A program made the translations under genes and the position numbers. A stretch of 64,000 nt of DNA from an uncultured Actinomycetota bacterium (GTDB lineage: Bacteria; Actinomycetota; Actinomycetes; Propionibacteriales; Nocardioidaceae), in contig CAWEQX010000002.1 of assembly GCA_963811385.1 (NCBI GenBank), forward strand, positions 227,081-291,080, read 5' to 3'. Positions 10,591 through 64,000 of this stretch are shown here, piece by piece. The notes below the pieces were generated by a model. It made no database searches. It was not told where the DNA came from and saw only the letters and a list, made by a program, of their open reading frames with translations. How positions within the stretch are numbered: position 1 is the first letter of the stretch; each line of letters starts with the position of its first letter.

Positions 10591-11119
10591 GCGCGCTCCA
10601 CGCCCTGCGGTCCGGGTGATCCCCGGCCAGGCATCCGGACAATCAGGACATCAAGGCATGCCCTGCCACCGCCGAGGTCCTCCGAGACCTGGTGGAACCG
10701 GGCCGGCGGCGCCGCCCCGCCGGCCCGGACCCACGCGCCGTACTCCCTCGACGACGGCCCGGACTTGCGACGCCGAGCGCCTGGCCGTGCGGTACGACGT
10801 CCGGGGCCACGCGGTGCGGACCAACGTCGCGCGGCCGATTCCTCCATTCGGCTGCCACGCCGGGCTCGGCCGCGAATACTCCGGGTTGCGCGGCTGCACC
10901 TGTCCGCACCTTGGACCGGCGTGTCGGCGAAGGTGGCACGTCGTCTTGTTTCCGCAGCACGGGGGTTTTCGGATGGTCCAGCACAGGCGCACACCTGCTC
11001 GGGTCAGGCTGGTCGCGACGGTCGCCCGGGAAGCGCGCGACCGGCGTGGGCGACGACGCCCGCCGGCAGCCCGCGGTGCGCGAGCCGGTCTGGTCGTCCA
11101 GGGTGGGCCGAGGAGACCT

Positions 11120-12370: not shown

Positions 12371-12417
12371 CCGAGGGGCGCTGGCCTCCGGGCGCTGGCC
12401 CACGGGCGCTGCCCGGC
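12362..12417. repeat. 4 x 14-bp tandem repeat (GGGCGCTG + 6 nt) spanning the stop codon of the propeller/RTX gene
   Basis: GGGCGCTG occurs at 12362, 12376, 12390 and 12404, an exact 14-bp period. Confidence 0.8.
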
Positions 12418-12418
12418 C

Positions 12419-12439
12419 GGAAGTTACCGACGCGTAGCA
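12419..12439 (+). promoter_or_regulatory. candidate operator GGAAGTTAC-N6-GTAGCA (inverted repeat GTTAC/GTAGC), copy 1
   Basis: The sequence GGAAGTTACCGACGCGTAGCA lies about 105 nt upstream of the Fe-S oxidoreductase start. The same flanks occur at 19721-19741. Confidence 0.4.
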
Positions 12440-12542
12440 TCGATCACATCTTTCCGTCCGGCAGCAGCCCTGCCACTAGGCTCTCCCACGCCCGGGCACC
12501 CCGGCTCGGCGACTCGTGGGCAAACACGACTGGGAGTGTGGC

Positions 12543-15314
12543 GTGACTCTGGTTCTCATCGTCGGCTTGGTCCTGAACGCGATCGCCCTGCCACTGGCCG
12601 CGCAGCGCATCGTGTTCCTCACCCGGCTGATCCGCAGCGGGCAGCCGGCTCCCGACCGCCTGGAGAACGTCACCAAGCGCACGGGCAAGGCCATCTCCAG
12701 CCAGCTGGTCGAGGTCCTCGGTCAGCGCAAGCTGCTCAAGTGGTCGGTGCCCGGCGCCGCGCACGCGTTCGTGATGTACGCCTTCCTCATCCTGGCCAGC
12801 GTCTACCTCGAGGCCTACGTCGCGCTGCTCACGCGCGACCCGTCCACGCAGCTGCTGATCTTCAACAGCTGGGGGCCGCTGGGCTTCCTGCAGGACCTGA
12901 TCGGCGTCCTGTGCCTGGTGGGCCTGGCGATCTTCACCGCGATCCGCTGGCGCGAGGCGCCCGCGCGGCTCGGCCGGGGCTCGCGGTTCAAGGGCTCGCA
13001 CACCGGTGGGGCCTGGCTCGTGCTGTTCATGATCTTCAACGTCATCTGGACGATGTTCCTGTTCCGCGGCGCCTCGTCGGCCCTGGGCAACCTGGGCTAC
13101 GGCAAGTGGGCGTTCGCGTCGTACGCCGTCGGCAAGGCGCTGGGCGGGTCCCCGTCGGCGCCGACCGACTCCTCCGGCGTCGAGGTGCTCGAGGGCGTCG
13201 GCCTGCTGCTGCACATCGGCATCATGCTCGTGTTCCTCATCATCGTGCTGAACTCCAAGCACCTGCACATCTTCATCGCGCCGCTCAACGTGATGTTCAA
13301 GCGCCCCGACGGCCCGGTCGCCCTCGGCGCGCTCAAGCCGCTGACCTCCGACGGCAGGGCGATCACCCTCGACGACATCGAGGACATGGACGAGGACACC
13401 AAGCTCGGCATCGGCTCGATCGAGGACTTCTCCTGGAAGGGCCTGCTCGACATGGCGACCTGCACGGAGTGCGGTCGGTGCCAGTCGCAGTGCCCGGCGT
13501 GGAACACCGAGAAGCCGCTGTCGCCCAAGATGCTGATCATGAACCTGCGGGACCACGCGTTCGCGAAGGCTCCCTACCTCCTCGCCGACGAGGAGGGCCG
13601 CACCGGCCTGGAGCCCCAGGTGATGGCCGAGGTCGAGCGCCCGCTCGTGGGCGCGACCGAGGGCGAGGCCTGGCACCCGACCGGCGGCGCGGTGATCGAC
13701 ACCGACGTGCTGTGGTCCTGCGTGACCTGCGGCGCCTGCGTCAACCAGTGCCCGGTCGACATCGAGCACGTCGACCACATCGTCGACATGCGCCGCTACC
13801 AGGTGCTGATCGAGAACAGCTTCCCCAGCGAGCTCAACGGGCTGTTCAAGGGCATGGAGTCCAAGGGCAACCCGTGGAACATGTCGCCCACCATGCGCCT
13901 GGACTGGGCCCAGGGTCTCGACGTCAAGGTCGTCGGCGAGGACGTCGAGGACCTCGACGAGGTCGACTGGCTGTTCTGGATCGGCTGCGCCGGCGCCTAC
14001 GAGGACCGCGCCAAGAAGACCGTCCGCGCCGTGGCCGAGCTGCTCGACCTGGCCGACGTCTCCTTCGCCGTGCTCGGCAAGGGCGAGACCTGCACCGGTG
14101 ACTCCGCCCGCCGCGCCGGCAACGAGTTCCTCTTCCAGCAGCTCGCCACCCAGAACGTCGAGGTGCTCACCGAGGCGAAGGCCAAGAAGGTCGTCTCGAC
14201 CTGTCCGCACTGCTTCAACACGCTCAAGAACGAGTACTCCGAGCTCGGCATCGAGCTCGAGGTCGTCCACCACACCCAGCTGCTCAACCGACTGGTGCGG
14301 GAGGGCCGGCTCACCCCGGTCGCCGACGCCGACGCCGCCGCCCCGAAGCAGAAGGTCACCTACCACGACCCGTGCTACCTCGGCCGCCACAACCAGGTCT
14401 ACACGCCCCCGCGGGAGCTGCTCGAGGTGATCCCCTCCACGGACTTCACCGAGATGGAGCGCAGCGGTGAGCGCTCCTTCTGCTGCGGCGCCGGCGGCGC
14501 CCGCATGTGGATGGAGGAGCGGATCGGCGAGCGGATCAATGAGAACCGCACCAAGGAGGCCGTCGGCACCGGCGCCGACCAGATCGCGGTCGGCTGCCCG
14601 TTCTGCCGGGTCATGCTCTCCGACGGCCTGACCATGCTGCAGTCCAAGGAGGAGGCGCGCGAGGAGGTCGAGGTCCTCGACGTCGCCCAGATGCTCCTGG
14701 CCGCGGTCAAGCGTGGCGAGACCCCGCCGGAGGCGAAGGCCGAGCCGGGCGAGGGCGACGACGAGCGCTACCCGCCCACCGCGGCCCACGACGGCACCGA
14801 AGACCCCGAGCAGGCGCCCGACCGCCTGGGCGACGCCGCCGAGGTGACCGACCCGTCGGGCCCGCTCGGCGAGCCCGAGGTTGACGCGACGGACGCCGGA
14901 GAGACTGCCTCCGCGGCGACTGCCGCGAGCGCTTCCCTGCCCTCCTGGGCCGGGTTGGACGTCGAGACGATCCTGGAAGGGGACGACGTGGACATCAGCG
15001 AGTTCAAGGCCAAGCTGAAGGCCGAGCTCAAGGACGAACTGCTCGCCGAGATCAAGGCGGAGCTCGAGGGGGCGCTCAACTCCGACTCCGGCACCTCGGA
15101 GCCGGTCGAGCGCACCTCGTCCCCGTCGGTGGCCGACAAGCCGTCGCAGACCGAGCAGGCGCAGGCCGCGCAGGTCCCCGAGCCGGAGCCCGCCCCCGAG
15201 CCCGAGTCGAAGCCGACCACCGCGGAGGAGAAGGTCGAGGAGAAGCCGGCCGAGAAGAAGCCCGCGACCTCCTCCGAGCCGCCGCCGGACATCGACTTCT
15301 CCGGCTCCCTCTGA
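12543..15314 (+). CDS. membrane-anchored (Fe-S)-binding CCG-domain oxidoreductase (heterodisulfide-reductase-related; Rv0338c-like)
   Basis: N-terminal TM helices are followed by two 4Fe-4S ferredoxin motifs (CTECGRCQSQCP, CVTCGACVNQCP) and two CCG-type Cys-rich domains (STCPHCFNT, CCGAGG, GCPFC). A long acidic tail follows. The start is GTG 12543 after GGGAG, or alternatively GTG 12516. Confidence 0.85.
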   Translation: MTLVLIVGLVLNAIALPLAAQRIVFLTRLIRSGQPAPDRLENVTKRTGKAISSQLVEVLGQRKLLKWSVPGAAHAFVMYAFLILASVYLEAYVALLTRDPSTQLLIFNSWGPLGFLQDLIGVLCLVGLAIFTAIRWREAPARLGRGSRFKGSHTGGAWLVLFMIFNVIWTMFLFRGASSALGNLGYGKWAFASYAVGKALGGSPSAPTDSSGVEVLEGVGLLLHIGIMLVFLIIVLNSKHLHIFIAPLNVMFKRPDGPVALGALKPLTSDGRAITLDDIEDMDEDTKLGIGSIEDFSWKGLLDMATCTECGRCQSQCPAWNTEKPLSPKMLIMNLRDHAFAKAPYLLADEEGRTGLEPQVMAEVERPLVGATEGEAWHPTGGAVIDTDVLWSCVTCGACVNQCPVDIEHVDHIVDMRRYQVLIENSFPSELNGLFKGMESKGNPWNMSPTMRLDWAQGLDVKVVGEDVEDLDEVDWLFWIGCAGAYEDRAKKTVRAVAELLDLADVSFAVLGKGETCTGDSARRAGNEFLFQQLATQNVEVLTEAKAKKVVSTCPHCFNTLKNEYSELGIELEVVHHTQLLNRLVREGRLTPVADADAAAPKQKVTYHDPCYLGRHNQVYTPPRELLEVIPSTDFTEMERSGERSFCCGAGGARMWMEERIGERINENRTKEAVGTGADQIAVGCPFCRVMLSDGLTMLQSKEEAREEVEVLDVAQMLLAAVKRGETPPEAKAEPGEGDDERYPPTAAHDGTEDPEQAPDRLGDAAEVTDPSGPLGEPEVDATDAGETASAATAASASLPSWAGLDVETILEGDDVDISEFKAKLKAELKDELLAEIKAELEGALNSDSGTSEPVERTSSPSVADKPSQTEQAQAAQVPEPEPAPEPESKPTTAEEKVEEKPAEKKPATSSEPPPDIDFSGSL

Positions 15315-18612: not shown

Positions 18613-18686
18613 GCGGATGTAGTTCAATGGCAGAACATGAGCTTCCCAAGCTCAGAATGCGGGTTCGATTCCCGTCATCCGCTCCA
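18613..18686 (+). tRNA. tRNA-Gly (anticodon CCC)
   Basis: GCGGATG...CATCCGC forms a 7-bp acceptor stem. The D-loop is AGTTCAATGGCAG. The anticodon stem-loop TGAGC-TTCCCAA-GCTCA gives anticodon CCC. The T-arm is GGGTTCGATTCCC, and CCA is encoded. Confidence 0.93.
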
Positions 18687-52785: not shown

Positions 52786-54177
52786 GTGAGCCGGGACACC
52801 CACGCCGCAGACCCCGCCGCCGCCCTGGAGGGCCTGGTCGACGAGCTCGGTGCGGACGTGGTCGTGGTCGACCCCGACCGCATGGCGGCCTACCGCTGGG
52901 ACCGGGCCCACGACCCCGACGCGGGCGTGCCGCTCGCGGTGGTCCGCGCCGGCTCGACCGAGGACGTGCAGGCCGCGGTCCGCTTCGCCGCCGCCCACGG
53001 ACTGGCCGTCGTGCCCCGGGGCGCCGGCAGCGGCCTGTCCGGCGGCTCGACCGCGGTCGAGGGCTGCCTGGTCGTCTCCACCGAGCGGATGACCCGCGTC
53101 GACGTGGACCCCGTCACCCGCACCGTCGTCGCCGAGCCCGGGGCGATGAACGCCCGGGTCAAGGCGGCCGCCGCGGAGCACGGGCTGTGGTACCCGCCCG
53201 ACCCGTCGTCCTACGAGATCTGCTCGATCGGCGGCAACGTCGCCACCAACGCCGGCGGGCTCTGCTGCGTGAAGTACGGCGTCACCACCGACTACGTGCT
53301 CGGCATGACCGTGGTGCTCGCCGACGGGACCGCCGTCGAGCTGGGCGGCCCACGCCTGAAGGACAAGGCCGGACTCTCGCTGACCAAGCTCTTCGTCGGC
53401 AGCGAAGGGACGCTGGGGATCATCACCCGCGTCGTGCTGCGCCTCCTGCCCGCGCAGCGTCCGCCGGCCACGCTGGTCGCCACGTTCGCCACCCTCGACG
53501 ACGCCACGGACACCGTCCTCGGCATCACCCGGGTGATGCGGCCCTCGATGCTCGAGCTCATGGACAAGCCGACGATCAACGCCGTCGAGGACCTGACCCG
53601 GATGGGGCTCGACCGCGACGCGGCCGCGATGCTGGTGATCCAGTCCGACGAGCCCGCCGAGCACGCTGGTCGCGAGATCGAGCAGATCTCGGCGATCTGC
53701 GCGGAGCACGACGCCACCGAGGTCTTCCACACCACCGACCCCGAGGAGGGGGAGGCGTTCGTCGTCGCTCGCCGGCAGGCCATCCCGGCCGTCGAGCGCA
53801 CCGGCGCGCTCCTGCTCGAGGACGTCGGCGTGCCACTGCCCCGCCTGGGCGCGCTGGTCGACGGCATCGCCGGCATCTCCGCTGCGCGCGACGTCACGAT
53901 CGCGGTCGTCGCCCACGCGGGCGACGGCAACACCCACCCGCTCATCGTCTTCGACCCCGCCGACGCCGAGCAGGCCGAGCGCGCGCACCTGGCCTACGGC
54001 GAGGTGATGTCGCTGGCCATCTCGCTCGGCGGCACGATCACCGGCGAGCACGGCGTGGGACGGCTGAAGAAGGCCTGGCTCGGGGAGCAGATCGGGCCGG
54101 ACGCCCTCGAGCTCAACCGGCGGGTCAAGCAGGCCCTCGACCCTCAGGGCATCCTCAACCCCGGCGCCCTCCTCTGA
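52786..54177 (+). CDS. FAD-binding oxidase (GlcD / D-lactate dehydrogenase family)
   Basis: 463 aa. An FAD_binding_4 domain (VVPRGAGSGLSGG, SIGGNVATNAGG) and a C-terminal FAD-oxidase domain (GEHGVGRLK). A TACGCT hexamer lies 7 nt upstream of the GTG. Confidence 0.9.
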   Translation: MSRDTHAADPAAALEGLVDELGADVVVVDPDRMAAYRWDRAHDPDAGVPLAVVRAGSTEDVQAAVRFAAAHGLAVVPRGAGSGLSGGSTAVEGCLVVSTERMTRVDVDPVTRTVVAEPGAMNARVKAAAAEHGLWYPPDPSSYEICSIGGNVATNAGGLCCVKYGVTTDYVLGMTVVLADGTAVELGGPRLKDKAGLSLTKLFVGSEGTLGIITRVVLRLLPAQRPPATLVATFATLDDATDTVLGITRVMRPSMLELMDKPTINAVEDLTRMGLDRDAAAMLVIQSDEPAEHAGREIEQISAICAEHDATEVFHTTDPEEGEAFVVARRQAIPAVERTGALLLEDVGVPLPRLGALVDGIAGISAARDVTIAVVAHAGDGNTHPLIVFDPADAEQAERAHLAYGEVMSLAISLGGTITGEHGVGRLKKAWLGEQIGPDALELNRRVKQALDPQGILNPGALL

Positions 54178-54262: not shown

Positions 54263-54940
54263 TCAGGCGTCGCCGGGTGCGAGCCTCAGCACCGTGCGGC
54301 CCGTGCCGGAGACGACGACGTCGACGGACGCGATGTCCGCCGGGTCGGCGGCGGTGGCCGCCTCGAGCCGCGTCACCCTGCCGGGCACCCCGCGCCACGT
54401 CGCGACCTGTTGGGTCTCGCCGTCGCGAGTCCGGACGACCAGGGCGTACGACGGCGCATCCCCCCAGCCCGCATCGCGGTAGGTGCAGGCCAGGCGCATC
54501 CGCGTGCCCCAGGCGACGCCCTCGAGCGAGACGGTGGCGCTCAGCCGCTCCTGGTCGACCTGTGACATGGCCTGCGCGTCCGGGGGGGCCGGCGAGGGTG
54601 ACGACCCGGCGAGCAGCACCCCGACCACGACGGCCACGGCCGCGGCCGCCGCCGTGACCGCGCCGGCCACCGCGACCGCTCGCATGCGGCGCCGGCGGCG
54701 GCGTACCTCCACGAGCAGCCGGGGCAGCAGGGTCTCGGGCAGGGGCGGGGAGGTGTCCGGGCCGGCGAAGGCGGTCTCGTCGACGTGCGCCAGGAGGGCG
54801 GGCAGGCCGGCGAGGTCGGCCACCGCGCGGGTGCAGGCGGTGCACCGCGACACGTGCTCCTCGAACGCCCGACGCTCCTCCTGGCTCAGGGCTCCGAGGA
54901 CGTACGCCGCGTCGTGGTGCGCGAACGGGTCGCTGCTCAT
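54263..54940 (-). CDS. transmembrane zinc-binding (ZAS, HxxxCxxC) anti-sigma factor
   Basis: 225 aa with the motif EEHVSRCTACTRAV, a central TM helix and an extracytoplasmic domain. ATGA overlap with the sigma gene stop. Confidence 0.82.
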   Translation of the reverse strand: MSSDPFAHHDAAYVLGALSQEERRAFEEHVSRCTACTRAVADLAGLPALLAHVDETAFAGPDTSPPLPETLLPRLLVEVRRRRRRMRAVAVAGAVTAAAAAVAVVVGVLLAGSSPSPAPPDAQAMSQVDQERLSATVSLEGVAWGTRMRLACTYRDAGWGDAPSYALVVRTRDGETQQVATWRGVPGRVTRLEAATAADPADIASVDVVVSGTGRTVLRLAPGDA

Positions 54941-55422
54941 CGGGTCACCCCGATCTCCTCGAGCGCCAGGCGCAGCGCGCGCAGGGCGTAGTGGGTACGC
55001 GACTTCACGGTGCCCTCGGCGATGCCGAGGGCACGGGCCGCCTCGGCGACCGACCGGCCGTCGAAGTAGCACTGCCGCAGCACCTGACGGTGGTCGGGCG
55101 ACAACCGCGTCATCGCCTCGGCCACGACCCACGACTGCAGCAGCTGGTCGACGTGGTCCTGCTGCTCGGTCTCGGGGACGTCCGCGGTGATCGTCTCGGG
55201 GTGGCTGCGCCGGGACCGCCACTGGTCGATGACGACGTTGCGTGCCACCGTGAACAGCCACGCGCGGGTCTGCGCCGACGTCCTGGACAGGACCTCCGGG
55301 TGCTGCCAGGCCCGCAGCAGGGTGTCCTGGCAGACGTCCTGTGCGCGGGCGGCGTCGCCGGTGGTCAGGTGCAGGCAGTAGCGCCACAGGTCCGCCGCGT
55401 GCTCGTCGTGCAGCGCCTGCAT
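54937..55422 (-). CDS. ECF (group IV) RNA polymerase sigma factor
   Basis: 161 aa from ATG 55422, which lies 6 nt after AGGAG. Region 2 (DVCQDTLLRAW, FTVARNVVIDQWR) and region 4 (SVAEAARALGIAEGTVKSRTHYALRAL) are present. An alternative TTG start at 55491 overlaps the upstream stop. Confidence 0.88.
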   Translation of the reverse strand: MQALHDEHAADLWRYCLHLTTGDAARAQDVCQDTLLRAWQHPEVLSRTSAQTRAWLFTVARNVVIDQWRSRRSHPETITADVPETEQQDHVDQLLQSWVVAEAMTRLSPDHRQVLRQCYFDGRSVAEAARALGIAEGTVKSRTHYALRALRLALEEIGVTR

Positions 55423-55487: not shown

Positions 55488-55877
55488 TCAACCGTGCGCC
55501 CGGCGGGGGCCGGCGGCGGTGAGGCGCGTGAGGTGGCCTTCGTGCAGCAGCCCGTAGGCGCCGCAGACGACTGCGACGACCTCGCTGGCGGCCGCGACCC
55601 AGGCGTACCAGCTCCAGTCGGTGGAGATGCCGAACAGGCTGCCGTTCACCGCGACCAGGAAGGCGACCAGCGTCGTGGCGCCGAACCCCGCGAGCAGGAA
55701 CAGCGGCGCCCAGTGCCGCCACTGCACGAGCATCAGGGCGATCGCCAGTCCCGCGACCACGTTGACCACGAAGAGGGCGCCCACCGTCCCCTGGTCCTTG
55801 ACACCGTCGACCCAGAGGTAGAGGTGGACGAGGGCCGACACGACGGCCGCGGCGGCACCGATGGTTCGAATGCTCAT
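55488..55877 (-). CDS. small integral membrane protein (4 TM), unknown family
   Basis: 129 aa with four hydrophobic helices and high GC3. Lies between the fusion gene and the ECF sigma gene. Confidence 0.65.
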   Translation of the reverse strand: MSIRTIGAAAAVVSALVHLYLWVDGVKDQGTVGALFVVNVVAGLAIALMLVQWRHWAPLFLLAGFGATTLVAFLVAVNGSLFGISTDWSWYAWVAAASEVVAVVCGAYGLLHEGHLTRLTAAGPRRAHG

Positions 55878-55928
55878 GCTGGACTCCGATCCGTCTCACC
55901 CTGGACACGGGCGCGGCGCCCGAACGGT

Positions 55929-58067
55929 TCACCCGCCCGGGGCCGGTCCAGCCCCGAAGGCGGTCAGGAACCGGTCACGGAGGGCGTCCATCCGCCAGAC
56001 CGGGGCCTGCGGTCCGGGGCGCAGGCCGGGCTGCCAGTCCCACCCCGCGACGCGCCGTACGACAGCCGGGTCCTTCGCGACCAGGGTCACCGGGACGTCG
56101 TACCCGGGGTCGGGGCCGCTGACGTAGTGGTGCGGCTGGTGGTCCCCCAGCATCACCACGACGAGGTCCCGGTCGCTCCTGGCCAGGAACGAGACCATGG
56201 TCCGCAGGGTGTACTCGACGGACTGGCCGTATGCCGCCCGCACCCGGCCGGTGTCCCCCAGCACCTCCGCCGCGGTGTCGCCCTGGTCCGGCATCGGGTC
56301 GAAGACCGACCCGTCGCCCACCTGGTCCCAGGGCACCAGGCGCGGCAGCGGCGCCCACGGGTGGTGGCTGGAGACCAGGTCGATCTCCGCCATCACCGGT
56401 CGCGACCCCTGCTCGTGCCGCGCGAACCACGCCAGCGTGTACTGGTCCGGCACGGGGCCGTAGCCGAACGCCGGGCCGCGGTAGCCGACGTCGCGCGAGT
56501 CGTGCAGCGCGTCGACGCCGTAGAACCGCGTCCCCTCCGGCCAGTCGGTCGTGTTCGCCGGCACGTCGAGCACGGTGCGCCAGCCCGCCCGGTGGAAGGC
56601 GCCGGACAGGGTGAGGCGCCGGGTCGCGAGCAGCTGGTCGTAGCGCCGCTGGCCCTGCACCCACAGCCCCGACTGCACGCTCGCGTGGGCCAGCCAGCTC
56701 CCGGCCCCGAAGGTCGGCGAGGTCAGGAACGCGCTGCGCGAGTGGTAGCCGGCCCGTCGCAGCCGCCGGGTCCCGGCGTCGAGGACCGCGCGGATGCCGG
56801 GAGCGTAGGAGCTGTCCTGCACCGCGGAGCGGCCGTAGCTCTCGACGAACACCAGCAGCACGTCCTTGCCCCGCAGCCCGCGCAGCAGCCGGTCCCCGGG
56901 CACCGACGCGAAGGGATCGGTCGCGATCTCCTCGGCGAAGACGCCGCGGTCGTGGACGTCCGCCGCGGCCGCGCGCACCTCCTCGACCGCCAGCCGCGCG
57001 GAGGACGCCGAGACCCCACCCGCCCCGAGCGGGGCGGCGACCACCGCGAGGGCGCCGAGCCCGAGCGCGGCGCGCAGGGCGGGCCGCGGGTGACGACGCG
57101 CGAGCGCGCAGGTCCGCAGGGTCGCCAGGGGCACCAGGACCATGAGCGCCACGGCTGCGGACGCCAGCGCGACCGCGACGGTCCAGGCCAGGTGGTCGCC
57201 CACCGAGTCCGACAGCACCCCGACCGCCGAGGCGAGGTAGGGCCAGTCGCCGACCGGGCGGAAGTCGCGGTCCAGGACCGTCCGGAACCCGACGTCGAGC
57301 ACCTTGAGGACGAGCAGGATCCCGGCCAGGGCACCGCTCGCCGCCGCCAGCACCCGCGCGGTCCGGCCGGGCACCAGCAGGACGGCCGCGACCAGGACCA
57401 GCCCCTCGGCCGGCACCAGGAGGAGCGCCCCGGCCGACACGGTCCCACCGGCCGGCAGGACGAGGGCCGTCCACACCAGCAGCAGTGCCAGTCCCGTGAC
57501 CACGGTGGGTCTCGCCGCGGCGCCGGTGAGACGCTCGGCGACCTCCGTGCCGAAGGACGCGACGAGCAGGCCCAGCGCGGTCGCCACGACGACCGTGCTC
57601 AGCAGGTGGGGAAGGGCTCCCGTCGCCGCCACGAGCAGTGCCACCCCCTGCACGGCCGCGACCACCTTGCGCCAGTACGCCGCCCGCAGCGGTCCCCGCA
57701 ACGCGGGCCAGACCACCTGTCCGACGAGCACGACGTACCTCGCCGCCCCGATCGCCAGCACCCACCAGCCCAGCGACGTCGCGACATAGATGCTCAGCGC
57801 GAGGACGAGCAGGGCATCGGTCTCCGCGTCGAACCGGGCGCCGCGCCCCGACGCGGTGCCGGTGCGCCGGGCGACGTACCCGTCGAGGGCGTCGAGGGGC
57901 AGCGCGACGGCCGTCACCACGCACAGCGCCGTGCGGACGTCCACGCCGACCGACGACAGCAGGACCAGACCGGAGACGACGAGCGTCAGCACCAGCCGGA
58001 CGGCCGTGACGCGGTCCGCCGGCCCCAGCCGGGGCGTGAGGGCGGCGCTCGGGTGAACCGTGACCAC
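55929..58067 (-). CDS. fusion protein: CDP-alcohol phosphatidyltransferase domain + multi-TM region + sulfatase/LtaS-like (alkaline-phosphatase superfamily) ectodomain
   Basis: 712 aa. The GTG start lies 5 nt after GGAGG. The CDP-OH-P-transferase signature is DALDGYVARRTGTASGRGARFDAETDAL. About 9-10 TM helices follow. The C-terminal domain has sulfatase-like segments (VLLVFVESYG, ...GDHQPHH). Confidence 0.85.
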   Translation of the reverse strand: MVTVHPSAALTPRLGPADRVTAVRLVLTLVVSGLVLLSSVGVDVRTALCVVTAVALPLDALDGYVARRTGTASGRGARFDAETDALLVLALSIYVATSLGWWVLAIGAARYVVLVGQVVWPALRGPLRAAYWRKVVAAVQGVALLVAATGALPHLLSTVVVATALGLLVASFGTEVAERLTGAAARPTVVTGLALLLVWTALVLPAGGTVSAGALLLVPAEGLVLVAAVLLVPGRTARVLAAASGALAGILLVLKVLDVGFRTVLDRDFRPVGDWPYLASAVGVLSDSVGDHLAWTVAVALASAAVALMVLVPLATLRTCALARRHPRPALRAALGLGALAVVAAPLGAGGVSASSARLAVEEVRAAAADVHDRGVFAEEIATDPFASVPGDRLLRGLRGKDVLLVFVESYGRSAVQDSSYAPGIRAVLDAGTRRLRRAGYHSRSAFLTSPTFGAGSWLAHASVQSGLWVQGQRRYDQLLATRRLTLSGAFHRAGWRTVLDVPANTTDWPEGTRFYGVDALHDSRDVGYRGPAFGYGPVPDQYTLAWFARHEQGSRPVMAEIDLVSSHHPWAPLPRLVPWDQVGDGSVFDPMPDQGDTAAEVLGDTGRVRAAYGQSVEYTLRTMVSFLARSDRDLVVVMLGDHQPHHYVSGPDPGYDVPVTLVAKDPAVVRRVAGWDWQPGLRPGPQAPVWRMDALRDRFLTAFGAGPAPGG

Positions 58068-58155
58068 GGCACCTCCGTGTGGTGGATGAGGACTCTACGA
58101 GTACGACGGACGGCGGACGCCGGTGGTTCAGCGGCAGCCGGGGCGGGAGCAGACG

Positions 58156-59162
58156 GTGACGGCAACCGCGCGGGCGCTCTGGGTCACCGGCCCCGGCGTG
58201 GCCGAGCTCCGGTCGGAGCGGCTGCCGGAGCCCGGGCCCGGCGAGGTGCTGGTGCGCACGCGGTTCTCGGCGGTCAGCCGCGGGACCGAGCGACTGGTGC
58301 TGCGCGGCGGCGTGCCGGAGGACCAGCGCGAGCGCATGCGGGCGCCGCACCAGGTGGGCGACCTTCCCGTGGCCGGTGAAGTACGGCTACCTCAGCGTCG
58401 GGGTGGTCGAGCGGGGCCCGTCCCACCTCGAGGGCCGCGAGGTCTTCTGCCTGCACCCGCACCAGACGGCGTACGTCGTGCCGGCGCGCGACGTCACCCC
58501 GGTGCCCGACGGCGTCCCGCCCCGGCGCGCGGTCCTGGCGGGCGCGGTGGAGACCGCGGTCAACGCGCTGTGGGACGTGCCGCCCCTGCTCGGCGACCGG
58601 GTCTGCGTGGTCGGCGCGGGCATGGTCGGCTGCGCCGCCGCCCGGCTCCTCGCGGGCGTGCCGGGCGTCGAGGTGACCCTCGTCGACGTCGAGGCCTCGC
58701 GTGCGTCGACGGCGGAGGCGTTGGAGGTCCGGTTCGCGCTCGCCGGCCGAAGCGCCGCGGGAGCAGGACCTGGTGCTGCACGCCAGCGCGACGCCTGCGG
58801 GGCTCGCGACGGCCCTCGGGCTGGTCGCCACGGACGGGGTGGTGGCCGAGCTCAGCTGGCACGGCGACCGCGTCGTCCCGCTGCCGCTCGGCGGGGACTT
58901 CCACTCCCGGCGGCTGACCCTGCGCTCGAGCCAGGTCGGCACCGTGGCGCGGGGGGCCCGGCCGCGCTGGGACCACGCGGGGCGGCTGGCCCTCGCGCTC
59001 GAGCTGCTCCGCGACCCGGCCTACGACGCGCTGCTCACCGGGACCACGCGGTTCGGGGACCTCCCGCACCTCATGCAGCGGATCGCGAAGGGCGCTCCCG
59101 GGATCTGCGACACGATCGGCTACGACCAGGAGGACGGCGATGTTCAGCCTGACCGTGCGTGA
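58156..59162 (+). pseudogene. MDR-superfamily dehydrogenase (BchC-like, SxGTERL type), two +1 frameshifts as assembled
   Basis: The protein is readable only by joining three frames. Frame 1 runs to about 58362 (..MRAPHQVGD). The next frame runs to about 58740 ([19 protein letters not shown]...[11 protein letters not shown]...EVRFAL). The third frame runs to the stop at 59162 ([21 protein letters not shown]...). The start is GTG 58156 after GGGAG, or alternatively 58123. Confidence 0.75.
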
Positions 59163-59539
59163 CCGGATGATGGTCGCCCACAGCCTGCGCGACCCGTTCT
59201 TCGGACCGGCGCAGCAGCTGCACGGCGCGACGTACGTCGTCGAGGTGACGGTGCGGTCGGACCGCGCTGGACGCCCACGGCGTCGTGGCCGACATCGGCG
59301 TGGTGGCCCGGGAGGTGCGGGCGGTCCTCGCCGGGCTCGACTACCGCAACCTCGACGACGAGCCGACCCTCGCCGGCGTGGTGACCACGACCGAGGTGCT
59401 CGCGCGGGAGGTGGCCGACCGGTTCGCGGGCAGGCTCGCGCGGACGGCGGGCACCGACCACGTGGCCGAGGTGGAGGTCGTGCTGCGCGAGTCCGACGTC
59501 GCCTGGGCGTCCTACCGCCGACCGGCGCGGGACGCGTGA
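59140..59539 (+). pseudogene. 6-pyruvoyl-tetrahydropterin-synthase (PTPS/QueD)-fold protein, one +1 frameshift as assembled
   Basis: ATG at 59140 lies 7 nt after AGGAGG ([41 protein letters not shown]). The frame switches at about 59262-59264 and continues ALDAHGVVADIGVVAREVRAVLAGLDYRNLDDEP... to TGA 59539. Confidence 0.75.
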
Positions 59540-60612
59540 TGGACCTGCACCTGGTCGCGCCCGACTCGGTCGACGACCCCGTCTGCCCAGCGGTGGCAAC
59601 GTGTACGACCGCGAGCTCTGCCGTGCGCTCGAGGCCGACGGGGTCACCGTGGTCGAGCACCTGGTGCCCGGTCGCCTGGCCCGACGGGGACCGCGCCGCC
59701 CTCGCGCGGGCGCTCGCGACCGTGCCCGACGGCGCCGCCGTGGTGCTCGACGGCCTCGTCGGCAGCGCCGTGCCGGACGCCCTCGAGGACGTGCGCCGGC
59801 GCCTGACGGTCCTGGTGCTGGTCCACCTGCCCCTGGGGCTGGCCGACCTGCGCTCGGCCCGGATCCGCGCGCACGAGCAGCGGGCCGTCGACGCGGCCGC
59901 CGGCGTGGTGACCACCAGCCGGTGGACCCGCGACTGGCTGCTGCGCACCTACGGGTCGGACCCCGCACACGTCACGGTCGCGTCGCCGGGCGCGCACCTC
60001 GGTCCGCTCGCCCGCCGCGGTCCGGGCGGTGAGCTGATGTGTGTCGGCGCGCTCCTCCCCGCCAAGGGCCAGGACGTGCTGGTCGAGGCGCTGGCGACCG
60101 TGCGGGACCTGCGATGGACCTGTCGCCTGGTGGGGCCGCTGGACCGCGACGCCGCGTTCGTGCGCCGGGTCCGCGGCAGCCTTCGCGAGCACGGGCTCGA
60201 GGACCGCGTCCTCCTCTGCGGTCCCGTGGCGCCCGCCGCCATGACGTCGCTCTACGCGCGGAGCGACCTGGTCGTGCAACCGACGCGCCTGGAGACCTAC
60301 GGCATGGCGCTGACCGAGGCCCTGGCCCACGGAGTCCCCGTGGTCGCCTCGGACACCGGAGGCGTCGCGGAGGCGGTCGGCCGCACCCCCGCCGTGCCCG
60401 GGGTGCTCGTGCCGCCCGGCGACCCGGGGGCGCTCGCGCGGACACTGCGCCGCTGGCTGACCGACCCACGGCACCGGGACGACCTCCGCGCGGCAGCCCG
60501 CGCTCGGCGGGTCGGGCTCGCCGACTGGTCGTCCACCGCCCGGGCCGTCCTGCGGGCCGTGGACCAGGCCGGGGTGAACCGAAGCCCCGCCCCGACCGTC
60601 CTCCAGTCATGA
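59539..60612 (+). pseudogene. GT4-family glycosyltransferase, compensating -1/+1 frameshift pair as assembled
   Basis: The ATG overlaps the PTPS stop (TGATG). Between about 59585 and 59676 the sensible reading (PSGGNVYDRELCRALEADGVTVVEHLVPGR) is in another frame, and the nominal frame there gives VCPAVATCTTASSAVRSRPTGSPWSSTWCPVA. The C-terminal GT4 core is intact (ETYGMALTEALAHGVPVVASDTGG). Confidence 0.8.
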
Positions 60613-61514
60613 AGCAGGCACTCCGACCCCTCGCCGGCCCACTCGCCGGTGCTGCGGTGCTCGCGGTCCTGGTGGTGTCCGTCGGGACGGGTCCCTTCGT
60701 GAGGGCGCTCGGGGGGGTGACGGTCCCCGCCGTGACGACGGCGGTGGCGGTGACGGCGCTGACCACCGCCTGTTGCGCGTGGCGCTGGACCTGGACCGCC
60801 CGCCGCCTGGGGCTCGACCTCGACCTGCGGTCCGCGCTCGGCGCCTACTACCGCTCCCAGCTCCTCAACGTGACGCTGCCGGGCGGCGTGCTCGGCGACG
60901 TCCACCGTGCGGTGCGCCACGGCGTGGACGTCTCGGCGGTGCCGGGCGCCGCCCGCGCGGTCCTGTGGGAGCGGGCCGTCGGCCAGGTGCTGCTCGTCGC
61001 CGGCGCGGTCGTCGCGATGGCGTGGCTGCCCGCCGCGGCCCGCACGCCGGCGTACCTCGGGCTCGGGGGCGCCGTCGTCCTCGCCCTGGGCCTGGTCGGC
61101 TGGTGCGTGCACGGGGGGCGGCGGGGGCGGCCCGTGGCCGCGGTCGCCGAGCTGCGCAGGATCGCCGTCGTCGGCCTGTGGCTGCCGCTCTCGCTGTCGG
61201 CGATCGCCGTCCTGGGCCACGTGCTGGTGCTGCTGACCGCGGCGCGCGCCGCGGGGGTCGCGCTGCCCGCGGCGACCGCCGTACCCGTGCTGCTGACCGT
61301 CCTGCTCGGCTCGTCGCTGCCCACCAGCGTGGCCGGCTGGGGACCGCGGGAAGGGACCGCCGCCTGGGTGTTCTCCGCGGCGGGGCTCGGCGCGGCCGGC
61401 GGGGTCACGGTTGCTGCGCTCTACGGGCTCCTCACGTTCCTTGCCGTGCTGCCGGGAGCTGTGCTCCTGCTGGCCGACGCCCTGCCCCGACCGGTCCGCT
61501 GGAGGCCCGCATGA
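60609..61514 (+). CDS. flippase-like membrane protein (lysylphosphatidylglycerol-synthase TM region / UPF0104 family)
   Basis: 301 aa from the ATG in an ATGA overlap with the GT4 stop. About 8 TM helices. The segment YYRSQLLNVTLPGGVLGDVHR is typical of this family. Confidence 0.8.
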   Translation: MKQALRPLAGPLAGAAVLAVLVVSVGTGPFVRALGGVTVPAVTTAVAVTALTTACCAWRWTWTARRLGLDLDLRSALGAYYRSQLLNVTLPGGVLGDVHRAVRHGVDVSAVPGAARAVLWERAVGQVLLVAGAVVAMAWLPAAARTPAYLGLGGAVVLALGLVGWCVHGGRRGRPVAAVAELRRIAVVGLWLPLSLSAIAVLGHVLVLLTAARAAGVALPAATAVPVLLTVLLGSSLPTSVAGWGPREGTAAWVFSAAGLGAAGGVTVAALYGLLTFLAVLPGAVLLLADALPRPVRWRPA

Positions 61515-62221
61515 CCCGCCCCTACGTGCTCCTGAGCTGCTGCCAGTCGCTCGACGGCTACCTCGACACCGCCACCGAGCGGCGCCTCGTGCTCTCCAAC
61601 GCCGCCGACCTCGAGCGGGTCGACCAGGTGCGCGCGAGCTGCGACGCGATCCTGGTCGGCGCGGGCACGATCCGCAGCGACGACCCGCGGCTCGTGGTCC
61701 GGAGCGCGGCGCTGCGCGCGGAGCGGCTCACCCGGGGCCTGCCCGAGACGCCGGCCAAGGTGACGGTCACCGCCGGCGGGCACCTCGACCCCGGCGCACA
61801 GTTCTTCACCACCGGTGAGACCGACAAGCTCGTCTTCTCCCGCAGCTCGGCGGTGCCACGGCTGCGCACCCACCTGGCCGGGGCCGCCGACGTGCTCGAC
61901 GGCGGCCGCCGGGTCTCGATGGGTCTGGTCACCCGGGTCCTGCACGACCGCGGCGTGCGCCGGCTCATGGTCGAGGGCGGGGGCCGGATGCACACCCAGT
62001 TCCTGACGGCAGGGCTGGCCGACGAGCTGCAGCTGGTCGTGGCGCCACTGTTCGTCGGCGACTCGAGGGCACCGCGGTTCGTCCGCGACGGTCGCTTCCG
62101 CTGGGACGAGCAGCACCGGGCGGAGCTGGCCGACGTACGTCGCATCGGTGACGTGGTGCTGCTGCGCTACGCCCTCTCCGAGCGGTTCAGCGAGCTCGAG
62201 GAGCCGGTCAGTGCCGGCTGA
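61511..62221 (+). CDS. RibD C-terminal-domain reductase (pyrimidine reductase / DHFR-like), no deaminase domain
   Basis: 236 aa with an ATGA overlap with the flippase-like stop. Motifs: MTRPYVLLSCCQSLDGYL, DAILVGAGTIRSDDPRL, RLMVEGGGRMHTQFL. Confidence 0.85.
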   Translation: MTRPYVLLSCCQSLDGYLDTATERRLVLSNAADLERVDQVRASCDAILVGAGTIRSDDPRLVVRSAALRAERLTRGLPETPAKVTVTAGGHLDPGAQFFTTGETDKLVFSRSSAVPRLRTHLAGAADVLDGGRRVSMGLVTRVLHDRGVRRLMVEGGGRMHTQFLTAGLADELQLVVAPLFVGDSRAPRFVRDGRFRWDEQHRAELADVRRIGDVVLLRYALSERFSELEEPVSAG

Positions 62222-62852
62222 GCTGCCGCCCGCCGCCGTCCGGGCCGAGGTCGCGCTGCCGGTCCGCCTCGCGGACGGAGGGGTCGTCACCGGGAGGCTC
62301 TCCTCGTTCACCCGGCTCGTCGACGGCAAGGAGCACGTGGCGCTGCGCCTCGACGGCTCCGCGCGGCCGCCGCTCGTGCGACTGCACAGCGAGTGCCTCA
62401 CCGGCGACGTCCTCGGCAGCCGCCGCTGCGACTGCGGCCCCCAGCTCGACGAGGCGCTCACGCGGATCAGCGCGGCCGGCGGCTACCTGCTCTACCTGCG
62501 CCAGGAGGGGCGCGGGATCGGGCTCTACGACAAGCTCGACGCCTACGTCCTGCAGGACCTCGGGCTCGACACCTACGACGCCAACCTGGCGCTCGGTCAC
62601 GACGCGGACGCACGGGACTACACCGTCGCCGCGCAGATGCTGGTCGCCCTCGGAGTGGGCCGGATCGCGCTGCTGAGCAACAACCCGGACAAGGCGGAGC
62701 AGCTGCAACGGTTCGGGATCGACGTCGCCGAGCGGCAACCGACCACCGTGCACGCGAACGCGGACAACGCGCGCTACCTGAGGGCCAAGGCCACCCGAGG
62801 CGGCCACACCCTCGCTACGGGCGGGACAGCGGCGAACCTCGCGCGCCCATAG
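62211..62852 (+). CDS. ribA: GTP cyclohydrolase II (stand-alone)
   Basis: 213 aa from GTG 62211, which overlaps the RibD-C stop by 11 nt. Zn-Cys triad (HSECLTGD...RCDCG), QEGRGIGL, and the catalytic Tyr retained (KLDAYVLQD). There is no fused RibB domain. Confidence 0.92.
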   Translation: MPAELPPAAVRAEVALPVRLADGGVVTGRLSSFTRLVDGKEHVALRLDGSARPPLVRLHSECLTGDVLGSRRCDCGPQLDEALTRISAAGGYLLYLRQEGRGIGLYDKLDAYVLQDLGLDTYDANLALGHDADARDYTVAAQMLVALGVGRIALLSNNPDKAEQLQRFGIDVAERQPTTVHANADNARYLRAKATRGGHTLATGGTAANLARP

Positions 62853-62874
62853 GGGCGCCGGGCTGCCGACGCGA

Positions 62875-63666
62875 TCAGCGGGTCGACACGACGACGGTGC
62901 CCGCCGCCTTGTCGTGAAGGGCCTGACGCCGGCTGTCCCACAGGGGCCAGAGCCGGTCGAGGGCGTAGAAGCCCACCACGGCGAGCCCGGCGAAAGGGAT
63001 CACGTTGAGGACGTTGACACCCACCTTGACCGCCCAGCGCATCACCGCCCGGCCGACACCGACCACGCCTCCGCCGACGGCAGGCTCGACCTGCAGGTGC
63101 AGCACCAGCTTCCCGGGCGTGGCCTGCAACGTGGCGACGAAGCCCACCTCGTAGGCGAGGGCCACACCGAGGTAGACCAGGGTGACGCCGAGGACCGGGA
63201 CCACCATCTGGCCGAGCAGCTGACCGGACCCGGGCAGAGGTGACCCGTTGTCCTGCGCGGCCTGGACGGAGGTGGCGTAGTCCTCGAACGCCCGCAGGAG
63301 GCGACCGATCAGACGGATCGACAGGAGGATCGAGAGCAGCTGGACCACGAAGCCGTCGATGATGGCGGCCATCCACCGTGTCCCCCACCGCGCCAGGGTG
63401 GCGCCCCGCGCGACGCGGTCAACCTCTCCGTCGACGGCTGCTGCGACGATCGCCCGCGCCTCGGCGTCACCGGCCTGAGCACGCGCGCGGACCTCGGCGA
63501 CGCGCTCACGCCTGTCGGCGAGGTCCGCCTCGGACCACTGCCGTCTCTCCGCCCGCGTCGCCGCCCGCAGCTGCTCGGTCCATGCGCGGCCGTCCCAGTA
63601 GCGCGCGACGTCGAAGGACCCCGACCTGACGGGGTCGGGGTACCACCCCGGTTCGTTCCCGGACAT
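62875..63666 (-). CDS. DUF2510 + RDD-family membrane protein
   Basis: 263 aa. The N-terminal GWYPDP...RYWDGRAWT motif is DUF2510. The C-terminal RDD-type TM domain ends with DKAAGTVVV. Confidence 0.8.
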   Translation of the reverse strand: MSGNEPGWYPDPVRSGSFDVARYWDGRAWTEQLRAATRAERRQWSEADLADRRERVAEVRARAQAGDAEARAIVAAAVDGEVDRVARGATLARWGTRWMAAIIDGFVVQLLSILLSIRLIGRLLRAFEDYATSVQAAQDNGSPLPGSGQLLGQMVVPVLGVTLVYLGVALAYEVGFVATLQATPGKLVLHLQVEPAVGGGVVGVGRAVMRWAVKVGVNVLNVIPFAGLAVVGFYALDRLWPLWDSRRQALHDKAAGTVVVSTR

Positions 63667-63758
63667 GACTCCCCCTGGATCTCCTGGTCCGTCCTCGGTG
63701 CGGAGACCGTACCTGTCCGGGAAGCACGCAGTCCGGAGCCAGTGACTGGGGCGGACTG

Positions 63759-64000
63759 TCAGGGTGCGCTGTGCAGGATGAGGACGTCGGGGTGCAGCTC
63801 GATGAAGTCGGCGGCCTCGAATCCGGCGACGATGTCGTCGAGGCGCCGGTCGACGAGGGCGAGGAGCGCCGCGTTGCTGATGTTGCCGGTCGCAACCAGC
63901 AGGAGGCGGCGTGGCGACCCGGTCACGGTGTGGGAGTGTCGGAAGTCGGAGTCCTTGGTGACCACGGTCGCCTGCTGAGCGTCGGCGTGTTCTGCGATCT
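63759..64000 (-). CDS. DUF5615-like PIN-fold (Mut7-C-type) toxin candidate, 5' end beyond the window
   Basis: The C-terminal portion reads ...ATVVTKDSDFRHSHTVTGSPRRLLLVATGNISNAALLALV... The reading frame stays open to the window edge. Confidence 0.6.
   Translation of the reverse strand, partial: IAEHADAQQATVVTKDSDFRHSHTVTGSPRRLLLVATGNISNAALLALVDRRLDDIVAGFEAADFIELHPDVLILHSAP

Follow-up and report, generated by a model that had tools for sequence, protein, structure and literature searches.

Which product would require, side by side, a CDP-alcohol phosphatidyltransferase (CDP-OH-PT), a glycosyltransferase, a flippase-like membrane protein and a set of enzymes of GTP-derived metabolism? The question is raised by seven genes in a stretch of 64,000 nucleotides (64 kb) from an uncultured bacterium of the family Nocardioidaceae (contig CAWEQX010000002.1); the whole stretch is called the window below, and positions are counted from its first letter. 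Six of the genes (g1-g6) lie on the plus strand and diverge from the seventh (g0) on the minus strand. Judged by the families encoded and their order, the locus is the Nocardioides-type copy of the orphan 'PTPS-IV' cluster SCO6648-6655 of Streptomyces coelicolor. As an answer to the question we tentatively propose a pathway regulated by an extracytoplasmic function (ECF) sigma factor, in which a phospholipid or glycolipid with a GTP-derived head group would be made inside the cell, flipped across the membrane and transferred outside. A role in the envelope or in membrane lipids in general is likely. The proposal draws on domain and fold identities, predicted topology, gene linkage and a promoter motif, from which we infer the substrates, the order of the steps and the final product.

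The window has a GC content of about 75% and is the DNA of a Nocardioides-like actinomycete. Among named organisms, Nocardioides marmoribigeumensis has the most similar cluster proteins, with identities of 74-83% (g0, g1, g2, g4 and g5) and 64% (g3). An earlier note on this DNA had described six coupled genes about 90 nt from g0; the spacer between g0 and g1 measures 88 nt, and by coordinates the junctions agree exactly with those it gave. The genes g1 and g2 overlap by 23 nt (g1 stop at 59160-59162, g2 ATG at 59140), g2 and g3 meet in TGATG (59537-59541), g3 and g4 in ATGA (60609-60612), g4 and g5 again in ATGA (61511-61514), and g5 and g6 overlap by 11 nt (g6 GTG at 62211, g5 stop at 62219-62221). 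Three of these six coupled genes, g1, g2 and g3, are frame-disrupted in the window (see below). The labels given to the proteins were borne out by HMM domain calls, which returned a BchC-like medium-chain dehydrogenase/reductase, PTPS, GT4, LPG_synthase_TM, RibD_C without a deaminase domain, and GTP cyclohydrolase II (GCH II).

A CDP-alcohol phosphatidyltransferase fused to an LtaS-like ectodomain

The intact gene g0 (55929..58067, minus strand) codes for a protein of 712 amino acids, in which a CDP-OH-PT with six transmembrane (TM) segments is followed by five further TM segments and an LtaS/EptA-like ectodomain of the alkaline-phosphatase superfamily, as judged from Pfam, an AlphaFold 2 (AF2) model and Foldseek. 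The N-terminal domain (residues 18-164; 57576..58016, minus strand) matches CDP-OH_P_transf with an E-value of 3.8e-13 (PF01066, 50.5 bits against a cut-off of 22). Its motif D59-x2-D62-G63-x2-A66-R67-x8-G76-x3-D80-x3-D84 is invariant in 36 homologues, and the motif residues align to the structures of PssA and CPT1. The fusion of 712 residues noted earlier was found again with this domain and with a Sulfatase match (residues 402-649) that is weak, its 23.3 bits falling just below the Pfam cut-off of 25.

A sequence-profile search of g0 against the PDB recovered the CDP-OH-PT motif alone, and the kinship of the ectodomain (residues ~385-705; 55953..56915, minus strand; placed by Foldseek and by invariant columns) needed a fold search. 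In the AF2 model (pLDDT 84) helices at 188-347 are followed by an alpha/beta domain. When the model was compared with the PDB by Foldseek, LtaP/LtaS came first (4uop with an E-value of 1.6e-8; 4uor, 2w8d and 2w5r), followed by MCR-1/EptA, BcsG and PbgA; sulfatases ranked below these. From hydropathy and the positive-inside rule 11 TM segments are predicted, with the catalytic loop of the CDP-OH-PT in the cytoplasm and the C-terminal domain outside; the loop 66-85 is rich in K/R, and the last cytoplasmic loop (316-333) has five K/R. The LtaS/sulfatase-like ectodomain of the earlier note can accordingly be described more closely as an outward-facing domain, by prediction, whose fold is closest to LtaP/LtaS and then to MCR-1/EptA and BcsG. 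Like LtaS/LtaP, EptA/MCR-1, BcsG and OpgB, g0 has five TM segments before an extracytoplasmic domain of the alkaline-phosphatase superfamily; unlike the characterised members, it is fused to a CDP-OH-PT.

In the ectodomain E409 is nearly invariant, and T449-S-P-T452, H568 and D642-H643 are invariant. These residues may form a metal and nucleophile (Thr) site, and their E/T/H/DH spacing looks LtaS-like.

A census with full-length g0 as the query counted 824 representative clusters (E <= 1e-30). Nocardioides sp. JS614 also has a homologue of g0 (P0235). Many members of the family (P0377-P0509, L084) are stand-alone proteins of ~520-590 amino acids with five TM segments and an LtaS-like ectodomain, and they carry no Pfam or NCBIfam annotation. 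This stand-alone family would represent cryptic LtaS/EptA-like enzymes in a phylum reported to be without LtaS orthologues. Locus L084, from Janibacter cremeus, also has the two halves of g0 apart: the TM and ectodomain half is a separate protein of 568 amino acids (4719-6425), and the CDP-OH-PT domain is fused to a SAM methyltransferase of a type here called MT-B (10730-12199; best NCBIfam model the DVU_1556 family). The latter fusion implies that the lipid or its head group is methylated on the cytoplasmic side.

The glycosyltransferase and the flippase-like protein

The gene g3 (59539..60612, plus strand) encodes a GT4 glycosyltransferase of 357 amino acids (Pfam Glycos_transf_1, E-value 5e-30), residues 15-45 of which are replaced in the window. 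Among solved structures the enzyme comes closest to sucrose-phosphate synthase, MshA, PimB' and BshA, whose acceptors are phosphorylated compounds or lipids. With g3 all NCBIfam models stay below their cut-offs; the GpgS model NF053787 gives an E-value of 2e-10 and 40 bits against a cut-off of 480.

The intact gene g4 (60609..61514, plus strand) encodes a membrane protein of 301 amino acids that consists of a stand-alone MprF-flippase domain (PplT / UPF0104 / LPG_synthase_TM; PF03706, 71.5 bits against a cut-off of 33.4). The six best Foldseek matches of its AF2 model (pLDDT 88) are all MprF, with a TMq of 0.59-0.62, and nothing else has an E-value below 0.05, so that the 'flippase-like' of the earlier note is given substance by a fold match to MprF only. 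With MprF the locus would share, besides PF03706 and the flippase-domain fold (TMq ~0.6), the principle of modifying a phospholipid inside and then flipping it; it differs in that g4 has no aminoacyl-phosphatidylglycerol synthase domain and the modifying enzymes are separate proteins. An anti-phage defence or 'GT4-conflict' system, considered on account of a PF20706 match, was rejected, as PADLOC was negative except that g1 gave a weak match of the Rossmann type.

Of the characterised systems, those most like the core are GpgSDF, which makes GlcN-phosphatidylglycerol in Pseudomonas aeruginosa, and HexSDF of Clostridioides difficile, in which a cytoplasmic GT4 enzyme glycosylates the lipid head group and a UPF0104 protein has been proposed to do the flipping (PMC12713373). 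The pairing of GT4 with UPF0104/PplT and the logic of making inside and flipping outside are common to these systems and the window cluster. In contrast, their deacetylase is absent from the window and the related loci, g3 scores far below the GpgS cut-off, and the window cluster has in addition the CDP-alcohol transferase, the LtaS-like ectodomain and a GTP-derived module.

With LtaP/LtaS as the best fold match of its ectodomain and an N-terminal domain resembling PgsA and PIP-synthase-type enzymes, g0 could also be seen as the 'missing LtaS' of conventional lipoteichoic acid (LTA) synthesis, polymerising glycerol-phosphate from phosphatidylglycerol on a glycolipid made by the GT4 enzyme, with a regulatory or decorative GTP module. 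It has been reported that Actinobacteria have no clear LtaS orthologues though some of them make LTA (PMC3196553), and the TM-ectodomain family is large, as its 824 clusters show. On the other hand, the fold fits single-transfer enzymes of the EptA, BcsG and OpgB type equally well, and Streptomyces makes LTA, yet its copy of the cluster has no LtaS-like domain nearby. The staphylococcal scheme of YpfP, LtaA and LtaS, to which the locus had been likened, holds at the functional level; the partners themselves are of other types, as the GT4 enzyme is not YpfP-like and the flippase is of the MprF/PplT type and not LtaA, which belongs to the MFS. The all-or-none linkage of four GTP-pathway genes (see below) would also be left unexplained. 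Conventional LTA synthesis is, in view of these points, quite unlikely.

The GTP-derived module

The proposed head group would come from the products of g1, g2, g5 and g6. The gene g1 (58156..59162, plus strand; 334 amino acids when intact, frame-disrupted in the window) encodes a BchC-like medium-chain dehydrogenase/reductase (TIGR01202 bchC, 40 bits). Its canonical Zn ligands are replaced (SxGTE, KYGY), and a GAGMVG sequence is followed by a conserved Asp, which suggests an NAD-linked dehydrogenase. BchC-type enzymes oxidise a 1-hydroxyalkyl group adjoining a heteroaromatic ring.

The product of g2 (59140..59539, plus strand; 132 amino acids when intact, frame-disrupted in the window), a T-fold protein, matches PDB entry 3D7J (SCO6650) with an E-value of 1.7e-35, and its sequence reads ...PFFGPAQQLHGATY... 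The pattern FGPAQ.LHGAT is at least 95% conserved in 52 g2 homologues. The FGPAQ signature defines the PTPS-IV subfamily (PMC5445326). In g2, as a member of this subfamily, the catalytic Cys and the second His of HGH are missing (QQLHGAT), and the T-fold Glu (TTTE), the anchor of 2-amino-4-oxopyrimidine rings, is kept. Canonical PTPS or QueD activity was rejected for g2, which has no Cys and a broken HGH site and falls below the TIGR00039 and TIGR03367 cut-offs.

The intact gene g5 (61511..62221, plus strand) encodes a pyrimidine reductase of 236 amino acids that is made up of RibD_C (PF01872, E-value 3e-39, residues 4-217) without a deaminase domain. The models that fit g5 best are those for the archaeal reductase and for the C-terminal domain of RibD, and TIGR01508 gives 139.8 bits, below its cut-off of 186. 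Its best PDB matches (5XUX, 6P8C and 2AZN) are the Methanosarcina mazei, Methanocaldococcus jannaschii and fungal 2,5-diamino-6-ribosylamino-4(3H)-pyrimidinone 5'-phosphate reductases, which act before deamination. The intact gene g6 (62211..62852, plus strand), for a GCH II of 213 amino acids, passes the cut-off of the RibA model NF001591 with 258 bits. At the product-switch position it has Tyr (KLDAYVLQD), aligned with Tyr105 of E. coli RibA (2BZ0); the switch Tyr is found in 38/38 GCH II matches of related loci, nearly all of them adjacent to the cluster.

With the archaeal and fungal branch of riboflavin synthesis the locus shares this early-acting type of reductase, to which g5 is closest although it stays below the TIGR01508 cut-off; it differs in that deaminase, lumazine synthase and riboflavin synthase are missing and in that the genes sit in a membrane-lipid locus. 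Pfam and NCBIfam found no RibD deaminase, ribB/ribBA, ribH, ribE or fbiC product among the seven cluster proteins, and no FMN riboswitch was found in the window, where Rfam yielded one tRNA only. The earlier claim that the window has no other riboflavin genes holds to this extent, the protein scan having covered the open reading frames (ORFs) of the cluster. With the deaminase domain, the ribB/H/E genes and the FMN riboswitch all missing, the locus is unlikely to serve housekeeping riboflavin synthesis; GCH II is moreover dispensable in 23 loci, and a housekeeping riboflavin operon was rejected. The cluster is very probably not one for housekeeping riboflavin synthesis. Clusters for toxoflavin, roseoflavin and other known GCH II-dependent natural products were rejected as well, no matching partner families having been found.

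The family membership of g2, which belongs to the pterin-binding T-folds and keeps the ring-anchoring Glu, also allows a soluble cofactor or secondary metabolite to be considered: a pterin or ribityl-pyrimidine that is glycosylated and in many cases methylated, in the manner of the pterin glycosides of cyanobacteria or of methanopterin-type cofactors. The CDP-OH-PT would then form a soluble phosphodiester, like DIPP synthase, and g4 would export the product. The general activity of BchC-type enzymes on heteroaromatic side chains would fit such a product, the GT4 neighbours MshA and BshA use soluble acceptors, and Streptomyces clusters are without the LtaS-like domain. Against it, g4 matches a phospholipid flippase only, the CDP-OH-PT is fused to an outward-facing lipid-phosphoalcohol transferase fold, and no cytidylyltransferase is present that would supply a CDP-alcohol. 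Further points bearing on this alternative come from the related loci and from the promoters.

A known orphan cluster and its linkage in Actinomycetota

Reportedly, the GCH II paralogue SCO6655 has been the subject of an in vitro study, and two proteins of the S. coelicolor cluster are said to have been studied biochemically almost 20 years ago. According to a 2026 review (PMC13151069), the third of the RibA paralogues of S. coelicolor has "a completely new function unrelated to flavin biosynthesis", and PF00925 and PF01872 had already been seen in the PTPS-IV neighbourhood by AGeNNT (PMC5445326). Literature searches for a characterised pathway or product of the cluster yielded orphan-cluster context only. 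The earlier statement that no characterised pathway was known is therefore upheld by the literature searched; the gene set itself, however, was already known as the SCO6648-6655 orphan (PTPS-IV, 3D7J, SCO6655).

The window locus shares with the SCO6648-6655 type the same families in the same order: a CDP-OH-PT gene divergent from genes for a BchC-like dehydrogenase, PTPS-IV, GT4, (a methyltransferase), PplT/LPG_synthase_TM and GCH II. In the Streptomyces locus that was compared (L087), PTPS-IV is 98% identical to SCO6650, and the proteins share 45-63% identity with their counterparts in the window. Throughout Streptomyces, PTPS-IV is ubiquitous. The locus is of a known orphan kind, and its variant features are the LtaS-like fusion, RibD_C and the Tyr-type GCH II.

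For a wider comparison, a scan with a g4 alignment was made over one genome per GTDB species; it gave at least 580 relatives, the best 80 loci of which were taken, and presence was counted by tblastn of the seven intact proteins against the loci (n=82). All seven genes were present in 31 of the 82 loci, and six (no GCH II) in 23 more, some of these being cut by contig ends. The cluster occurs in Nocardioidaceae, Kribbella, Pedococcus, Aeromicrobium, Cellulomonas, Jatrophihabitantaceae, Gaiellales and Solirubrobacterales; in the last two the order is rearranged and the genes are still clustered. This gene-neighbourhood check shows the neighbourhood to be conserved across Actinomycetota. In N. 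marmoribigeumensis (L001) an ORF of 122 amino acids (9591-9959) without a Pfam hit or a tblastn match to g6 takes the GCH II position; with this ORF in place of g6, GCH II is dispensable or has decayed even in this nearest named relative.

In the loci of at least 18 kb g0 was beside g4 in every case (57/57). Of the same 57, 36 had g1, g2 and g5 together, 15 (Kribbella) had none of the three and 6 had only some of them, and 15 of 16 Kribbella loci keep only the core of g0, with or without GT4, and g4. This all-or-none pattern argues for a locus of two parts, a core (g0, g4 and in most cases GT4) and an accessory GTP-derived module whose genes come and go together. By unsupervised clustering of ORFs, recurrent partners were found that have no copy in the window, namely the methyltransferases MT-A (40 loci) and MT-B (34) and a membrane acyltransferase of the Acyl_transf_3 family (21). 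Beside the cluster, a DUF7475 protein was found in 9 loci, an ECF sigma factor in 13 and an anti-sigma factor in 12. The Kribbella loci, with g0 and g4 but no GTP genes, and the Acyl_transf_3 partners both speak against the soluble metabolite considered above.

A conserved ECF promoter motif

Three genes downstream of g0 and co-directional with it encode a small membrane protein of 129 amino acids with a weak, sub-threshold DUF7475 match (55488..55877, minus strand; Pfam E-value 3.7e-4), located between g0 and the sigma gene; an ECF sigma factor of 161 amino acids (54937..55422, minus strand; ATG with an AGGAG ribosome-binding site); and a zf-HC2 anti-sigma factor of 225 amino acids identified by domain calls (54263..54940, minus strand), the gene of which is translationally coupled to the sigma gene by an ATGA overlap. 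The sigma factor scores 232 bits against a cut-off of 202 with NF007227/PRK09645, the SigL-type model.

The sequence TGAACC-N16-CGT(A/C) has two exact matches in the window, where 0.12 were expected, both of them TGAACC-N16-CGTC: one upstream of g0 (58105..58130, minus strand) and one within the 3' end of g3 that ends 9 nt before the g4 ATG (60575..60600, plus strand). Two further sites have one mismatch. TGAACC-N16-CGTG, 77 nt upstream of g1, is divergent with and overlaps the g0 promoter (58054..58079, plus strand), and TGAACC-N16-CGTG(TC), 29 nt upstream of the DUF7475-sigma-anti-sigma genes, overlaps the g0 stop (55906..55931, minus strand). Across 81 loci the motif occurred 154 times against 13.9 expected. 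It lay upstream of g0 in 31 loci, of g4 in 29 (including Streptomyces), of g1 in 8, of the Kribbella GT4 gene in 7, of the DUF7475 gene in 5, and of the MT-B and ECF sigma genes in 3 each; in L028, L037, L073 and L075 the sites are 71-76 nt upstream of g1. The Streptomyces cluster shares the ECF-type motif upstream of g1, g2 and g4. A scan for sigma-70 promoters and intrinsic terminators found nothing.

The motif TGAACC...CGTGTC resembles the Mycobacterium tuberculosis SigL consensus reportedly described by Hahn et al. in 2005. With a sigma factor of the SigL family, a zf-HC2 anti-sigma factor and the motif before both their own operon and the targets, the locus has, as far as sequence can tell, the make-up of a SigL-type ECF regulon. 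The likeness to SigL-RslA of M. tuberculosis lies in the sigma factor, which passes the PRK09645 cut-off, and in the adjacent zf-HC2 anti-sigma factor; the SigL targets pks10/7, mpt53 and Rv1139c differ from this cluster. The conserved ECF promoter motif before g0, g1, g4 and the sigma operon is new here. The predicted control by a sigma factor of the envelope type is a further point against a soluble cofactor or secondary metabolite, which taken with the evidence given above we consider unlikely.

The promoters also bear on whether the locus is one system at all. GCH II and RibD_C are riboflavin-pathway families, the Kribbella core exists alone, and Zallot et al. mentioned unpublished evidence tying PTPS-IV to F420 synthesis (PMC5041015); g5 and g6, with or without g1 and g2, might on these grounds feed riboflavin or F420 by way of 5-amino-6-ribitylaminouracil, next to an independent lipid module of g0, g3 and g4. 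Two unrelated neighbours of this kind would be hard to reconcile with a linkage that outlives rearrangement from Actinomycetes to Thermoleophilia, with g1-g2 and g5(-g6) flanking the core and being lost together, and with the occurrence of one ECF motif before g1, before g4 (leading g5-g6) and before g0. The coupled overlaps that join g3, g4, g5 and g6, and the lack of a deaminase, ribB/H/E and fbiC gene and FMN riboswitch, argue in the same direction, and the possibility appears very unlikely.

A proposed pathway

According to the pathway favoured here, the cytoplasmic CDP-OH-PT of g0 would join a phosphatidyl group to the alcohol of a polyol or polyol-phosphate. CDP-diacylglycerol is the probable donor, because no cytidylyltransferase is encoded. 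The GT4 enzyme (g3) would glycosylate the lipid made by g0, methyl- and acyltransferases would decorate it where present, and g4 would move it to the outer leaflet. There the outward LtaS/EptA-like domain of g0 might pass the phospho-head group to an extracytoplasmic acceptor, or polymerise it.

GCH II (g6) would divert GTP from the riboflavin route as 2,5-diamino-6-ribosylamino-pyrimidinone-5'-phosphate, which g5 would reduce ahead of any deamination. The dehydrogenase g1 and the metal-site-deficient g2 could then remodel the g5 product to a modified ribityl-pyrimidine or pterin. Chemically attractive would be a route in which C2' of the ribityl chain is oxidised and the ring then closes to give a dihydropterin; the reductase and the dehydrogenase together would here amount to an Amadori rearrangement. 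We infer that the GTP-derived product serves as the lipid head group; in the scheme it would be either the head group or its decoration. Acyl_transf_3 (21 loci) and the two methyltransferases (34-40 loci), which are typical of envelope glycoconjugates, favour the scheme.

The Streptomyces variant may arrive at the same diaminopyrimidine via the formylamino-pyrimidine FAPy and a deformylase. Met-type GCH II is said to be FAPy-forming, reportedly from work by Spoonamore in 2006. Beside the Met-type GCH II gene of L087 there is a creatininase-family gene (14119-14883, minus strand; PF02633, E-value 4e-67) with a weak match to the model of the FAPy-deformylase ArfB. This adjacency to a FAPy-forming cyclohydrolase suggests that SCO6654 is a deformylase returning FAPy to the diaminopyrimidine, an assignment that appears to be unpublished. 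The coupling of a FAPy-type cyclohydrolase with a creatininase-family protein recalls ArfA and ArfB of archaea. No creatininase homologue was found in Nocardioides-type loci.

Several observations weigh against the pathway as drawn. The likeness of the ectodomain to LtaS and EptA is modest, with target-normalised TM-scores of 0.44-0.59, 11-17% identity and a sub-threshold Sulfatase match, and its catalytic residues have been picked out only by their conservation and spacing. In Streptomyces the CDP-OH-PT is a stand-alone protein of 261 amino acids, and neither the LtaS-like domain nor RibD_C is at the locus, so that the steps of ectodomain transfer and g5 reduction are not universal. A creatininase-family gene (ArfB family) stands there where the window has RibD_C, MT-A is present, and GCH II has Met at the switch (KLRAMALQ) where the window protein has Tyr. 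Because 15 of 16 Kribbella loci have the core without the GTP module, the head group does not have to come from GTP. A CDP donor has to be assumed, no cytidylyltransferase being in the cluster, and the unpublished link of PTPS-IV to F420 synthesis points elsewhere. Finally, the frameshifts described below could be real.

Frame disruptions in g1, g2 and g3

In a frame plot of GC content at third codon positions, g1 switches frame twice and g2 once, and g3 leaves its frame and then returns; the Pfam PTPS match in the window is spread over two frames. A metagenome contig (L002) that is 98.6% identical over window positions 55919-64000 has intact g1, g2 and g3 of 334, 132 and 357 amino acids. Relative to it, single nucleotides are inserted in the window at 58369 and 58739 (g1) and at 59259 (g2). 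In g3, the nucleotide lost at 59580 and the one gained at 59672 compensate each other; the ORF stays open and residues 15-45 are scrambled, including the conserved PSGGNVYDR. Taken literally, the window sequence would mean that g1 and g2 are inactivated, and g3 too through the scrambled PSGGNVYDR.

The strain's cluster could on this evidence be decaying, with five real indels, g1-g3 as pseudogenes and a Kribbella-like core-only state ahead. The five frame-disrupting indels lie within 1.3 kb, a frame-consistency screen of all 64 kb showed no disruption besides those in g1-g3, and Kribbella has naturally lost exactly these genes. Sequencing noise across the window was thereby ruled out as the cause, and homopolymer errors are not supported either, the sequence contexts of the indels not being those of homopolymer-length errors.

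The genes are otherwise flawless, however: removal of the inserted bases gives full-length, family-typical g1 and g2, and substitutions between the window and L002 are mostly synonymous. A second contig of the same metagenome (L085), in which g0 is 100% identical to that of the window, has g1-g4 intact with alleles that differ. When the three sequences are aligned, the window follows L085 in g0 and L002 in g4-g6. From 58250 to 60500 it is intermediate, with 73 variant sites matching L002 and 57 matching L085, the two classes being interleaved. Only ~15 substitutions are unique to the window, as against all five indels, which is the signature of a collapsed consensus. Since both sister haplotypes are intact, their alleles interleave in the window and the indels are unique to it, the frameshifts are probably an assembly artefact, i.e. 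a consensus collapsed from two haplotypes, and decay of the cluster is rather unlikely.

Six of the window-unique substitutions are bunched at 60470-60571, at the 3' end of g3, where the mixed region turns L002-like, just upstream of the internal ECF-type promoter; this may possibly be the edge of the collapsed region. In L085 two transposase genes (9446-13007; DDE_Tnp_1_4 and DDE_3) lie beyond the FAD-linked oxidase gene, and similarity to the window (upstream of 52751) ends there, which is strain-level structural variation beside the cluster.

Genes around the cluster

Directly 3' of g6 there is a convergent gene for an RDD/DUF2510 membrane protein of 263 amino acids (62875-63666, minus strand). 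Past the window end, L002 has a toxin-antitoxin-like pair (DUF433/DUF5615) and a conflict-system-type gene for 1247 amino acids (DUF4365 + PIN-TPR-GreABC). On the other side, just past the anti-sigma gene, a GlcD-like oxidase of 463 amino acids (FAD_binding_4/FAD-oxidase_C) is encoded at 52786-54177 on the plus strand, and L085 has it at the same position. A tRNA-Gly (CCC) gene at 18613-18686 (plus strand) is the sole RNA gene found in the window by Rfam and ARAGORN.

Implications

The interest of the cluster lies in its being widespread, long unexplained and now directly testable. It occurs in hundreds of actinobacterial species and has been without an assigned pathway for nearly two decades. 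The fusion of CDP-OH-PT to an LtaS-like domain, the MprF-type flippase and the ECF motif lead to a testable prediction, a lipid-linked GTP-derived head group. The case of g1-g3 also calls for caution, as seeming pseudogenes in metagenome-assembled genomes may be consensus artefacts of co-assembled strains.

In its most far-reaching form, which is possible though somewhat doubtful, the proposal would describe a new class of envelope modification in Actinomycetota: a glycosylated, often methylated or acylated GTP-derived diaminopyrimidine or pterin on a phospholipid, flipped by PplT and transferred by cryptic LtaS-like enzymes under the control of a SigL-type sigma factor. If true, this would provide a function for the long-orphan proteins SCO6650 and SCO6655 and LtaS-like enzymes in a phylum said to be without them, and it bears on how LTA-like polymers may be synthesised in Actinobacteria that have no recognisable LtaS.

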